This document shows positions 39,135 through 55,086 of a stretch of DNA of 64,000 nucleotides, piece after piece. The DNA is from an uncultured archaeon (lineage in GTDB: Archaea > Asgardarchaeota > Lokiarchaeia > Sigyniarchaeales > SOKP01): NCBI GenBank assembly GCA_964486045.1, contig CAZALK010000001.1:32001-96000 (forward strand), in the 5' to 3' direction. A model generated the notes under the pieces. It had not been told where the DNA came from and made no database searches. It saw nothing but the letters and a program-made list of their open reading frames with translations. The stretch's first letter is position 1. Every line of letters starts with the position of its first letter. A program made the position numbers and the translations under genes.

Positions 39135-40109
39135 GTGGCAATGGAAAAACCCAACCTCAGTTTATCTATCAAATCTATTGATGATTTGACGAGATTCATT
39201 AATTTAGCTAGCCTTTTAGAACTATCGGGTTGGCCAAAACCAGGTAATGTACACCGTACGCGAGATTTTCACGATACCAAATTTGAACATTTTTTAGCGG
39301 GAATTGTAGCAATCCAACCAGACTTTAAGAGATTGTGTGAAAGAATCTTCGAGTCATCATATAACAACAAGAACGATTACAAATCTATAGGATTAGGTCT
39401 TTTTTACAAGAGTGCTGCTAAGGAAATGATGAAATGGCAAGATGGGGGTAATGTTCTACTTGGACACATTTTAATACTAGCTCCTCTCGCTGCAGCTGCT
39501 ACATTATGTTTAAGAGAAAACATGTTTAAATTTGTTAATTTTAGATATTTTTTACTAAAAGTAATTAATGAGTCAACGGTAGATGATACACTAAATTTAT
39601 ATGAAGCTATTAGATTTTGTAATCCCGGGGGATTAGGGAAAGTAGAAAAGTATGATATTAATAATATGAATTCGTTTAACGAGATTCGGACTGATAACGT
39701 TAATTTGAAAAAGATTTTTGAATTATCAAAAGAATATGATTTAATTAGTTCTGAATATTCAACAGGATTTAATATTATTTTGAACGAGGGATTACCGTAC
39801 TTCCTTAAAACTTTTAATCAACTTCATAATCCCAACATCACAATTGTAAACACCTATTTGAAAATACTTTCTGAACACCTTGATACCCTAATAATCAGGA
39901 AATCCGGTAGAGTTGCCGCTATCTATGTTAAAAAAGCTGCAATAACAATACTGCAACATGGAGGAATCTCATCTAAAAAAGGTTTAGAATTAGCTTTTAA
40001 ACTAGACAGTGAACTTCATGAGAAAAAAGGGAATCTAAATCCTGGGTCCACTGCTGATCTCCTTGCAGGAATAATATTTTGCGCTTTAATTTTTGGATTA
40101 AAAATATAG
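39135..40109 (+). CDS. citG: Triphosphoribosyl-dephospho-CoA synthase family (CitG)
   Basis: LE..PKPGNVH, DTLIIRKSG, NPGSTADL. Confidence 0.9.
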   Translation: MAMEKPNLSLSIKSIDDLTRFINLASLLELSGWPKPGNVHRTRDFHDTKFEHFLAGIVAIQPDFKRLCERIFESSYNNKNDYKSIGLGLFYKSAAKEMMKWQDGGNVLLGHILILAPLAAAATLCLRENMFKFVNFRYFLLKVINESTVDDTLNLYEAIRFCNPGGLGKVEKYDINNMNSFNEIRTDNVNLKKIFELSKEYDLISSEYSTGFNIILNEGLPYFLKTFNQLHNPNITIVNTYLKILSEHLDTLIIRKSGRVAAIYVKKAAITILQHGGISSKKGLELAFKLDSELHEKKGNLNPGSTADLLAGIIFCALIFGLKI

Positions 40110-44549: not shown

Positions 44550-46154
44550 CTAATTATGGTTTATTGCTTCACCATAACCTATTAAACGATAACGTCTATT
44601 TATGATTCGAGATATTGCGTATATGAAATCTTCAGGAGGACAGATAGGTGGTGTGAGTTTTATTATTGTACTGTTCTTCAAAATTTTTGTCACAGTTCCG
44701 GCTGTTTTTTCAGTTCCAACAACTAATAGCAATTTTTCACCATGTTTAAGTGGTTGAACCTTCATTTGAACTTCTGATCCAATTACGTTATCTAACAGAT
44801 TGACTTTTAATTCAATTTCTTTAAGGATCTCGGGGAGCGTTCCTGGTTTTCCAACTAAATTTCCAATTAGATGATCACCTTTGGTTAATGCTGGATCTAA
44901 ATTCGTACCTAAACCAATCAGCCCACCAGGTTTAGCTCTTTTTAATTGTTTAGTTCCCTGGCTAATGCTTACAACATTTGATTTGATTGGGATATATTCA
45001 TCTTTAATGTGTATACCAGGCTTTATTTCGATTTGAGATCCAATTTCAACATTACCTTTCAGAACAGAACCCCCAATCACTCCACCTTGTAAATCTACAA
45101 GTGCCTTTCCAGGTTTATTAATATCAAATGACCGTGCAATTAAAAATTGAAAAGTTTCCGACTCATTAAATGTAGGAGTGGGGATTATTTCCTCAAAAGC
45201 TCTAACGACTAAATTTAAGTTAGCTTCAAAAACTGCCGAGAGTGGTATGATCGGAGCATTTTCCGCAACAGTCCCTTTTACAAATTCTTTAATCTGTTGA
45301 AAATTCTCTAAAGCTTGGTCTCGGGAAACAGCATCAATTTTATTCTGTAAAATGATAATTCTTTTAATCCCTGCAATATTTAATGCAGCTAAATGCTCGC
45401 GTGTTTGAGGTTGGGGGCATGATTCATCTGCAGCTATTAGTAAGCAAGCCCCATCCATTAATGAGGCACCACTTAACATAGTTGCCATTAAAATCTCGTG
45501 ACCCGGTGCGTCAACAAAAGATATATTTCTTTTAAACTCTAAATTCCTTTTACATTTTTGACATGTAAACCGAGGTTGACCTTTTGCTCTTCTCTGCTCG
45601 ATTAAATGAGCCGTAGTATATTCATCACAGGCAGGACAATACAGAATTGTGGCATTAGAATAGCCAAGTTTTATTGAAATGCCCCTTTCTTGCTCTTCAG
45701 AATGTCGGTCAGTCCAATCTCCAGTTAAAGATTTAATAAGAGTTGTTTTTCCATGGTCTACATGCCCAACAAGCCCAATATTGCATTCTGCTTGTTGTCC
45801 TATCAAATCTTTTATTTTTTTTCCCTTATCTTTTGAAGCCGATTTTAGCTTAGCTTTCATTGTTGGTTTCGGTTTAGGAATTGGTTTAGACTTAGGAGTT
45901 GGTATTGATTTTTTACTTTTTTTTTCTGCTACAGATGTAGTGGATTTTTCTTTTTCGCTTATTTCTTCAAGGAATTTTTTTGCTTTTGCTATAATTTTTT
46001 CAGCAGTTGCTTTACCAACACCTTTAATTTTTAACTTTACTAAATCTACGATCTTTATTCTAACTAATTTTTCAATTGAATCTATCCCAGCCGCTTTCAT
46101 TTTGTCTGCGAGGGTTTTCCCAATTCCTGATACATCTTCTAATTCAAAAGACAT
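44550..46154 (-). CDS. eif2g: Translation initiation factor 2 gamma subunit with N-terminal HhH extension
   Basis: QAECNIGLVGHVDHGKT, RGISIKLGY, Zn knuckle, DAPGHE, PQPQTREH, QNKID, RLIGYG. Confidence 0.96.
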   Translation of the reverse strand: MSFELEDVSGIGKTLADKMKAAGIDSIEKLVRIKIVDLVKLKIKGVGKATAEKIIAKAKKFLEEISEKEKSTTSVAEKKSKKSIPTPKSKPIPKPKPTMKAKLKSASKDKGKKIKDLIGQQAECNIGLVGHVDHGKTTLIKSLTGDWTDRHSEEQERGISIKLGYSNATILYCPACDEYTTAHLIEQRRAKGQPRFTCQKCKRNLEFKRNISFVDAPGHEILMATMLSGASLMDGACLLIAADESCPQPQTREHLAALNIAGIKRIIILQNKIDAVSRDQALENFQQIKEFVKGTVAENAPIIPLSAVFEANLNLVVRAFEEIIPTPTFNESETFQFLIARSFDINKPGKALVDLQGGVIGGSVLKGNVEIGSQIEIKPGIHIKDEYIPIKSNVVSISQGTKQLKRAKPGGLIGLGTNLDPALTKGDHLIGNLVGKPGTLPEILKEIELKVNLLDNVIGSEVQMKVQPLKHGEKLLLVVGTEKTAGTVTKILKNSTIIKLTPPICPPEDFIYAISRIINRRYRLIGYGEAINHN

Positions 46155-49635: not shown

Positions 49636-49734
49636 AAAATAATGGTCTTAACACTTCTAACAATTATCATCATTAACGTTTTGATATTCTTCGTATTTTT
49701 TGTTCTTGTAATATTAACATTCTTGCCAATTTAA

Positions 49735-50033
49735 ACTCTTTTTCACCAAAGAAAATTTTATAGGTTATTCAAATTATTTGAGGAAATAATCCCAGGTTAT
49801 CAATCAATATTGATCAATTATTCTCAGGTGATTACATATTCTTTATTCTGGTAAGAGATTCTGCGAACAGTACTCAAAAATTTCTGGACATTGCTTTCAA
49901 ATTTAATATTCCAACACCTATAATAGATTATATTTTTCTTATCTCTTTAATCTTTATTGTTGGAATAACTGGAATTTCTACTTTCCTAGTTTATAAAGGT
50001 ATAAGGAAATATCCGAGTACTTTTGGAAATTAA
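49735..50033 (+). pseudogene. 3' remnant of a paralogue of the C25 peptidase
   Basis: INIDQLFSGDYIFFILVRDSAN...IPTPIIDYI...GITGISTFLVYKG aligns with the C-terminus of 46604-48796. Confidence 0.85.
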
Positions 50034-50223
50034 GAATGAATTTCTTAGGTTAATTAGAATGACTTGAATCCTTTCTTTTTCCAGATAAAGTAAATGTAAA
50101 ATTGAATTAATTATTCCAAAGATACTAAATCAAAAAAATAGCTACAAGTTCGTTTTTAACCTTTTAAATTTAACCTTTCTAATGAAAAAATTTAATTATT
50201 AAGCTTTATTATTTCTATTTACT

Positions 50224-50281
50224 TTTTACCAAATAAGAAGGTATTTACCAAGTAAATAACCAGACTTATTGGATGGTAAAA
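50224..50281. other. Long bulged inverted repeat upstream of the 5S-like RNA
   Basis: TTTACCA/TGGTAAA, AATAAG/CTTATT, GGT/ACC, ATTTAC/GTAAAT nested around a CAA loop. Confidence 0.55.
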
Positions 50282-50290
50282 TTGTGGTTT

Positions 50291-50503
50291 TATGACCACA
50301 TAAATAGATAACGTTAAGTTAAGCGCTGGAAGTTAAACTTATTCGCGTTGTAGATAGTACTGCAGTTGATATCTGTGGGAAACTACAAACTGTGAGTTCG
50401 CTCACGGTCATGGTGATTTAGGATAATACCCGGTCCCATTGGGGCAGGGATAATACCCGGTCCCGGGAAACCGAACCCGGAAACGCTTATTTATGTGGTT
50501 ATA
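50291..50503 (+). rRNA. Circularly permuted, expanded 5S rRNA-like RNA
   Basis: 3' half of 5S (GGAAGTTAA...loop E AGTA/GAAA...helix I strand) precedes the 5' half (CTCACGGTCAT...ATACCCGGTCCCATT) via TTCG; loop C motif CCGAAC at 50471-50476; 17-bp terminal stem. Confidence 0.8.
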
Positions 50504-50605
50504 TAAAACTTACTTACTGATATTATATATTTTTGATTAAAAATAATTTTTTTATGTGATCAATTATGATATAGATCATAATAATTAGTGCTAAGGTAAA
50601 AGAAT

Positions 50606-53112: not shown

Positions 53113-53712
53113 TTAATACGTTTGTCGCTCTAATATTTTTCGTGTTAATTGTTCAAAAGCTTGACCAATATTTTCACCCGTTTTAGAGGAGATTTTAAGA
53201 TAGTCAATTAAATTATATTCACTAAGAAAAGATTGGGCATAATCATCGTCTACTTGAATTTCATCAACCAAGTCTAATTTTGTGCCCAGAAAAAGAACAG
53301 GAAGACTTGGGTCTCCCTTACGCACTATGTTTAACCATTGTTCCAAATTCTCCAAGCTGGATATTCTTGTAAGGTCAAACATGAGCATAGCTCCTTTTGC
53401 TCCTAATACATAACTTTCAAGCAGGAATCTAAACCGTTCTTGGCCACCGAAGTCCCAGAGCTGCAAGGTACAGTGTTTATCGTCAATCTCCGTCTCTTTT
53501 AAAAAAAACTCAACCCCAATGGTCATCTTAGTTTCTGCTGAGAATTTCCCCTCCACATATCGAGTAAGGAGCGTTGTCTTCCCCACACCTCCTTCTCCCG
53601 CAGTCAATATTTTGAGTATGAACTTTTTTGGCACGTTACTTACCCGGTTTCGTTTTCTGGTTGAGAATCCTAAAGATCGATCCAAATTGAAAGTACTGTT
53701 TGATTTGCCCAA
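53113..53712 (-). CDS. Rab-like small GTPase
   Basis: GEGGVGKTT, TIGVEF, WDFGGQERFR, TKLD, KISSK. Confidence 0.95.
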   Translation of the reverse strand: MGKSNSTFNLDRSLGFSTRKRNRVSNVPKKFILKILTAGEGGVGKTTLLTRYVEGKFSAETKMTIGVEFFLKETEIDDKHCTLQLWDFGGQERFRFLLESYVLGAKGAMLMFDLTRISSLENLEQWLNIVRKGDPSLPVLFLGTKLDLVDEIQVDDDYAQSFLSEYNLIDYLKISSKTGENIGQAFEQLTRKILERQTY

Positions 53713-54570: not shown

Positions 54571-55086
54571 ATGACAAGTCCCATACTTTTAAAAGTGATC
54601 ACAGCGGGAGAAGGAGGGGTAGGCAAAACAACGCTCCTTTATCGATACGTGGAAGGAAGGTTTCTGGTTAACACTAAAATAACACTAGGAGTCGAATTTT
54701 TCATGAAAGAGCTAAATATCGAAGGAAGACAAATTAATTTACAAATTTGGGACTTCGGTGGACAAGAACATTTTAGACCCCTATTAAAAAACTATTCTAT
54801 GGGGGCAAGAGGGGCTCTATTACTCTTTGATCTCACTCGTCCATCCAGTTTAGAGAAAATTGATGAATGGGTGAACATTTGTAGAGGAGAAAATCCAGAA
54901 ATTCCTATAATTTTCTTAGGAACTAAATTAGATTTAACAGAATCAATTTCTGTCGATGATGAATTCGCCTTAAAGTTTCCTAAGAAGTATGATTTCTTTG
55001 AATTTTTGAAGATTTCCTCTAAAACGGGAAAGAATGTGAATTTAGCATTCGAGTTATTAGCAAGTAAAATATTAAAGAAGCTTTAG
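54571..55086 (+). CDS. Rab-like small GTPase (paralogue of 53113-53712)
   Basis: GEGGVGKTT, TLGVEF, WDFGGQE, TKLD, KISSK. Confidence 0.95.
   Translation: MTSPILLKVITAGEGGVGKTTLLYRYVEGRFLVNTKITLGVEFFMKELNIEGRQINLQIWDFGGQEHFRPLLKNYSMGARGALLLFDLTRPSSLEKIDEWVNICRGENPEIPIIFLGTKLDLTESISVDDEFALKFPKKYDFFEFLKISSKTGKNVNLAFELLASKILKKL

Follow-up and report, generated by a model that had tools for sequence, protein, structure and literature searches.

A circularly permuted 5S rRNA gene in Asgard archaea and its probable maturation into a closed 120-nt RNA

The 5S rRNA is regarded as a linear, intron-free molecule that is transcribed from a colinear gene. Within the 64,000-nt stretch of Lokiarchaeal DNA analysed here (hereafter the window), positions 50291-50503 hold all 5S rRNA elements, but in rotated order and with the native 3' half first, raising the questions of whether the locus is a functional gene, where its new ends are joined and in which form its product would work. 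This rotation had been read from the letters in an original prediction, and both the sequence and its fold bear it out at the same positions. A literature search, with subscription journals mostly outside its coverage, returned no published archaeal permuted or intron-bearing 5S rRNA.

Layout and uniqueness of the rotated gene

Helix I (50389-96/50401-08) is capped by TTCG with a pair probability of ~1.0, as anticipated; it is thus closed in the DNA, and the genomic gene is not colinear and has no free 5' or 3' ends at helix I. The 213-nt region folds with a z-score of -4.5, none of 200 shuffled sequences being as stable. In genomic order, RF00001 gave a partial match of 18.6 bits at 50288-50398 against a cut-off of 38, in line with the expectation that linear covariance models would miss the gene, and neither Rfam at gathering threshold nor ARAGORN returned a match within the 64-kb window. 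Further Rfam matches close to the 5S locus were dismissed as chance. The features of the locus are as follows.

50254..50273, + strand: probable BRE and TATA-like box, putative promoter, kept at the same spacing in ~50 family loci
50291..50331, + strand: 5' leader, predicted cut after 50331; comprises a stem strand (50291-50305), a side hairpin (50309-50321) and, for the bulge-helix-bulge (BHB), the AAGCG outer strand (50321-25), the CTGG central strand (50326-29) and the bulge AA
50332..50396, + strand: mature 5S, native 3' part (loop B 3' side, helix II 3' strand, helix V, loop E, helix IV, loop D, helix I 3' strand), from the RF00001 partial match, covariation and RNA contig cover
50397..50400, + strand: UUCG tetraloop that bridges helix I from its native 3' end to its native 5' end
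50401..50439, + strand: mature 5S, native 5' part (helix I 5' strand, loop A, helix II 5' strand, loop B, helix III 5' strand, first half of loop C), from profile scores and covariation
50440..50470, + strand: predicted 31-nt BHB intron in loop C, from BHB geometry, pair probability and a copy in locus L193
50471..50482, + strand: last exon, 12 nt, predicted cut after 50482 (second half of loop C, helix III 3' strand, which is also the BHB central helix, and AA)
50483..50503, + strand: 3' trailer (last bulge base, CGCTT outer strand, long stem strand)

The promoter-like element lies ~25-30 nt upstream of the leader, outside the coverage of a sigma-70 promoter scan, which was uninformative, and T-rich tracts follow the trailer at ~50529-50555. 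The cap loop is UUNG in 74 of 75 loci, a count partly selected by the search pattern, and UACG or UGCG in the pattern-independent loci L179, L181 and L183.

A normal 5S gene elsewhere in the genome had been named as a point to check. A whole-genome search of the source genome (G000; 5.18 Mb, 99% complete, 7.8% contamination) found no second 5S candidate; the same genome encodes uL18, uL5, two EndA paralogues and RtcB. Such a locus might still be an assembly artefact made of collapsed tandem 5S copies, or a pseudogene with the true 5S gene unassembled, and it is the case that rRNA genes are often absent from metagenome-assembled genomes, that the scanned 23S motifs were not found in G000 and that its contamination reaches 7.8%. 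Against this, 5S matches with the permuted layout occur in 35 of the 36 genomes of the genus, including single-contig chromosomes, the locus is orthologous and stand-alone with a downstream gene common to 75 of 95 loci, compensatory changes run throughout, the intron recurs in an independent assembly and matching RNA exists, which together leave an artefact or pseudogene scarcely credible. The suggested covariation check gave a consistent picture: in an alignment of 21 window-type sequences, pairing holds in 93% of cells and two-sided changes are seen at 21 of 36 pairs, compared with 33-42% of cells paired in a slid-register control. It is virtually certain that the permuted locus is a real, functional 5S gene.

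Several features of its surroundings were also recorded. Upstream of the 5S gene lies a small membrane-protein-like ORF (window 49642-50033) with a frame change near 49730 that reflects either a sequencing error or a pseudogene, and homologues of this ORF adjoin the 5S gene in ~50 loci. An aIF2-gamma-like GTPase (window 44550-46154) carries, as judged by eye, an N-terminal extension of ~120 residues with a helix-hairpin-helix-like stretch and a Lys/Pro-rich linker, and two Rab/Ras-like small GTPase genes typical of Asgard archaea are found at window 53113-53712 and 54571-55086. ARAGORN reported only 31 tRNA-like genes in G000, many of ~100-115 nt and with implausible anticodons, which suggests tRNA introns of ~30 nt at non-canonical positions. 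Two small contigs, C40 and C45, have 58% GC in a genome of 31% GC, are without the scanned rRNA motifs and are probably contamination.

Terminal junction and the loop C intron

The 17-bp stem between leader and trailer described in the original prediction (50291-50307/50487-50503) can form; the CGTT/AACG end helix placed beside it has a pair probability of 0.02 and is not kept in relatives. No canonical BHB had been seen at the junction, but a relaxed one is present. Its outer helix is AAGCG/CGCTT (50321-25/50484-88) and its central helix CTGG/CCGG (50326-29/50477-80), with bulges AA^G and AA^A, so that in the leader GCG-CTGG-AAG (50323-50332) lies opposite CCGG-AAA-CGC (50477-50486); the left bulge is without a closing inner helix at 3 nt. 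Cuts after the second base of each bulge are predicted to join A50482 to G50332. The BHB is relaxed throughout the window's genus and fully canonical in the Odinarchaeia loci L053 and L054, and the 4-bp leader/trailer helix, with one or more 3-nt bulges where the new ends lie, matches the arrangement of the Thermoproteus tenax SRP RNA type. For the full precursor, the fold of lowest predicted energy lacks the terminal BHB (-74.2 vs -72.3 kcal/mol with it), which stands ~2 kcal/mol higher and has a central pair probability of 0.02. The outer-helix pairs of this BHB show two-sided changes in three of three cases, with 98% of cells paired.

Candidate joins were scored with a profile HMM built from 14 linear Asgard 5S genes, all of which pass RF00001, the profile standing in for RF00001 on rejoined sequence. 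The genomic order scored 24.9 bits and the rotation proposed originally 38.4 bits; the BHB junction scored 45.8 bits with the 31-nt insert kept and 57.2 bits when both BHB events were applied. The best of 500 shuffles, scored with an earlier version of the linear-5S profile, reached 0.6 bits. After both splices the ring would measure 108 + 12 = 120 nt, and it aligns over its full length to linear Asgard 5S genes. Among 75 cleanly parsed loci, a set that leaves out nine with unclear automatic calls, the rings set by the BHBs are 119-123 nt long. Ranked on profile score alone, the BHB product was the best of ~870 joins in 60 of these 75 loci and among the top three in 72, the loci being kin rather than independent trials, while only 0.27% of the ~870 joins per locus fit the BHB geometry. 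In addition, 21 loci with their break at another place carry the 16-mer across the window's junction as contiguous DNA, and 12 loci do so for the window's intron junction. A slide test on the 75 loci and a count of bulge lengths are partly circular, the junctions having been pre-filtered by geometry, and it is the profile-only ranking and the cross-lineage 16-mers that carry the weight. It is very likely that the ends are ligated at A50482-G50332.

The original prediction had the ends either held by the terminal stem or joined from A50482 to G50318, with no BHB involved. A long leader/trailer stem does exist, and organellar permuted 5S rRNAs stay permuted in their final product (PMC4267664). 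That junction is, however, 14 nt off and scores 30.2 bits with the insert removed, or 30-38 bits overall, against 57 for A50482-G50332; the AAGTTAAGC copy at 50316-24 is not kept in relatives; and the relatives' RNA contigs, which are without leader or trailer and run through loop C into GGAAGTTAAAC, largely refute it. It is accordingly given very little credence.

The original list of elements also overlooked the 31-nt insert at 50440-50470, which holds an exact 17-nt direct copy of exon 50421-50437. The insert is bounded by a second BHB with a central helix TCCC/GGGA (50434-37/50465-68), bulges AT^T and AA^C, an inner helix GGGGC/GTCCC and an outer helix of a single pair, again of the relaxed type. 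In the 151-nt circle the pair probability of this BHB is 0.93-0.98 and that of native helix III also exceeds 0.93; folded alone, the intron region prefers a different hairpin, whereas in context the BHB dominates. The predicted cut restores the loop C of the genus letter for letter. A border one base later (CCCATT), favoured by the linear-gene profile, was set aside, as BHB geometry and the intron-less relatives place it at CCCAT.

No counterpart of the insert was found at the same site in 134 other genomes of the family, and the closest relatives are without it. The same intron recurs with three changes, one of them turning a G-U into an A-U pair, in the independent JGI metagenome contig L193, and is thus not an assembly error. 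Across the 75 loci, 24 inserts were found in 23, at no fewer than four sites in loops C and D, all of 29-31 nt and bounded by BHBs; none of the other introns matches its own exon beyond 7 nt. The exact copy suggests that the window's intron was born by local duplication of a 5S exon.

Alternatively, the ends could be ligated and the insert kept as a loop C expansion segment, giving a 151-nt 5S rRNA. It folds as a compact hairpin with helix III still forming, and RNA of the window's own strain is absent from the runs checked (the best share was 0.5 of 8 words). The BHB borders, the exact restoration of the genus loop C on cutting and the uniform 29-31 nt of all 24 inserts speak for removal, as does the conserved contact of loop C with 23S helix 84 (PMC7283268), so that retention of the insert appears very improbable. 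There is good reason to expect that the 31-nt intron is spliced out. Loop C also contacts uL5.

Two of the permuted 5S genes (L067 and L193) have two introns each and would need three ligations. In L183 (G097:C1, ~792200-792420, minus strand) and L138 (Ca. Atabeyarchaeum deiterrae, CP147780) a 30-nt intron lies, by eye, at the permutation break itself; its BHB (CACG/CGTG) cannot form until the first ligation has taken place, which implies an ordered two-step maturation. A further possible intron site is seen in L191 (G066:C4, ~39980-40090), where an insert of ~30 nt occurs just past the loop B motif GTTAAAC.

RNA from relatives and the fate of the ring

Metatranscriptome contigs from four studies were placed on positions 50200-50600 at 85% likeness, without a DNA control; they derive from relatives that are at best 95-99% alike, and show neither strand nor ends. 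One short unrelated piece aside, their cover is restricted to 50328-50440, and none of the contigs from the four studies lies on the leader, the trailer or the intron. The contigs are thus confined to the mature region, as for a discrete small RNA, in these relatives. Since the relatives may be intron-less in their DNA, the missing intron cover does not count as evidence of splicing.

The loose ends of these contigs (X1, X2 and X4) run past 50439 into the last exon, whose letters (50471..50482) follow directly, and then into GGAAGTT, and those before 50328 carry loop C. This stretch from loop C to GGAAGTT spans both common break sites and is therefore not contiguous in the DNA of either Lokiarchaeal gene type. 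Owing to a GGAA repeat, the ligated bond can be placed only to within a few bases. One 150-nt unitig (X5 record 15) represents a 120-nt cycle with a 30-nt overlap and three differences, passing from 50380-50439 across the junction to 50328-50409 and through an intact UUCG cap, and X4 record 12 is a 121-nt cycle; the other placed records have lengths of 150-153 nt. The cap is crossed by contigs from each of the four studies. Together, the RNA contigs support end-joining in the genus. As for the proposal of a transcribed, permuted and possibly circular 5S rRNA, its core is upheld by conservation, covariation, the lack of another 5S gene and the relatives' RNA, while its junction and end stem are not.

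Based on these data, the following route is proposed. A precursor of ~213 nt would be transcribed from its own putative promoter, and its leader would pair with the trailer to present the relaxed BHB. The tRNA splicing endonuclease EndA, whose target in archaea is the BHB motif, would cut after A50331 and A50482, and RtcB would join A50482 to G50332, a joined product that is present in the relatives' RNA. The second BHB, in loop C, would free the 31-nt intron 50440-50470. The expected product is a closed 120-nt 5S rRNA in which loops B and C are normal and UUCG seals helix I, and this ring would most likely be what uL5/uL18 bind in the 50S subunit.

The main rival to this last step is that the ring is an intermediate, reopened at UUCG to give a normal linear 5S rRNA, as happens with permuted tRNA genes. 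The permuted tRNAs of Cyanidioschyzon merolae pass through a circle and are then re-linearised (as cited in PMC4267664), and archaeal pre-16S/23S circles were long believed to be reopened (PMC12918454). The contigs are blind to ends, random priming in library preparation favours rings over linear 120-mers, and a de Bruijn cycle could arise from a mixture of cap-spanning precursors and junction-spanning reopened molecules. Retention of the ring is favoured because the linker is a stable 4-nt tetraloop, usually one of the very stable UNCG loops, which leaves no extra letters for trimming, and because a circularly permuted 5S rRNA, its native helix I ends joined by a 4-nt connector, sustains E. 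coli (PMC7283268). Furthermore, the cap is crossed in all four studies with leader and trailer unseen, and circular forms of SRP RNA and 23S rRNA are reported to work in archaea (PMC4731332, PMC12918454). Reopening is therefore considered rather unlikely, although it is the strongest of the competing explanations, and the ring is probably the mature ribosomal form. Taken as a whole, a functional, stand-alone permuted 5S gene maturing into a closed 120-nt ring is the probable and best explanation of the locus.

Known systems and distribution among Asgard archaea

The closest parallel is the permuted SRP RNA of T. tenax, which EndA cleaves at a BHB and which functions in circular form (Plagens et al. 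2015, PMC4731332). Both systems involve gene-level permutation of a universal structural RNA with a BHB between leader and trailer, ligation restoring a functional loop, and a gene missed by standard annotation. The window's 5S differs in being a ribosomal RNA that is permuted in many Asgard families, with several break points and frequent 30-nt introns, and whereas EndA cleavage and protein binding were demonstrated for T. tenax, the 5S rRNA is known from sequence and from RNA of relatives. Permuted tRNA genes have been described in C. merolae (Soma et al. 2007, as cited in PMC4267664), and share with the window's 5S the 3' half placed first, terminal splicing and a circular product; their circles are reopened by removal of a spacer, whereas the spacer of the window-type 5S is a stable 4-nt tetraloop that appears intact in the RNA contigs. 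Brown algal and other stramenopile mitochondria have permuted 5S rRNAs (Valach et al. 2014, PMC4267664) in which helix I is likewise replaced by a hairpin and which the standard model also misses. These organellar RNAs stay permuted, with an open three-way junction, whereas in the window-type 5S a BHB-type junction mends the break, which falls in loop B or C, and the relatives' RNA contigs cross it.

Circularly permuted tRNA genes occur in the archaeon Thermofilum pendens too. The Thermoproteales have short (<50 nt) hairpin BHB introns in their 16S rRNA genes (Jay and Inskeep 2015, PMC4496867), and Asgard tRNA introns are described in a 2026 preprint (bioRxiv 10.64898/2026.10.13.758758) in which rRNA is not mentioned. 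The window's intron resembles both in being a short, BHB-bounded hairpin that is inserted in a conserved loop and has a patchy occurrence among relatives; it differs in its 5S host, its length class of 29-31 nt and the 17-nt copy of its own exon. Archaeal pre-16S/23S rRNAs are circularised at BHBs and circular 23S rRNA is found in ribosomes (PMC12918454), and a permuted 23S is reported from Pyrococcus (PMC7758197). A processing stem with a BHB circularises the rRNA in these cases as in the 5S; the 16S and 23S genes are, however, colinear, with the BHB outside the mature sequence, whereas the window's 5S needs ligation to build its conserved core. According to the paper on circular 23S rRNA, which dates from 2026, circularisation plays no part in the processing of archaeal 5S (PMC12918454). 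In Sulfolobus, Danan et al. observed minor circles of 5S from a normal gene, which they were unable to validate (PMC3326292), and Wu et al. found 5S not predictable in their Asgard genomes (PMC8813620).

A search for the layout in further Asgard genomes, as had been recommended, found the permuted arrangement with a BHB in ~11 Asgard families, including Odinarchaeia and Atabeyarchaeia, two of the families being assigned by eye. The break differs among them: GGAA^G is the window's type, GGTC^C in loop C marks a large sister clade, GGA^A is found in Odinarchaeia and others and GGCAG^ in class-level families, while in L052 the break lies on the 5' side of loop B. RF00001 run over 100 relatives exceeded its cut-off in 16 genomes, mostly of one family (f2), with weak or split matches elsewhere. 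Bacterial matches of a pattern scan over GTDB had no 5S score and were discarded as chance.

Unlike neighbouring families, the f2 Lokiarchaeia (L040-L051) have 5S genes of the ordinary linear kind, frequently as two or three copies, a state that is either ancestral or a reversion. They include G044 (4.36 Mb) and G055 (6.04 Mb), with three linear 5S genes each, which we take to be Prometheoarchaeum syntrophicum and Ca. Lokiarchaeum ossiferum; since both have linear 5S, the suggested test of the permuted gene in a cultured Lokiarchaeon would probably fail.

It seems plausible on balance, though less firmly than for the window itself, that ribosomes of many Asgard lineages contain a 5S rRNA closed covalently by the tRNA-splicing machinery, with a break that moved several times, repeated gain of 30-nt BHB introns and, in the window's lineage, an intron derived by exon duplication. 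If true, 5S maturation would rely entirely on EndA/RtcB, each molecule needing two to three ligations. A splice-dependent and probably circular 5S rRNA in the closest relatives of eukaryotes would change the view of 5S rRNA as a linear molecule, and would offer an explanation for the failed 5S prediction in complete Asgard genomes (PMC8813620). With several breaks and intron sites in a single 120-nt RNA, plus an intron that copies its exon, the origin of permuted genes and of BHB introns would become testable.

The only linear 5S in the window's genus is L037 (G063:C68:17163-17272), which scores 80.8 bits and looks bacterial by eye; its genome, G063, also has a permuted gene (L189), and L037 is probably a binning contaminant.
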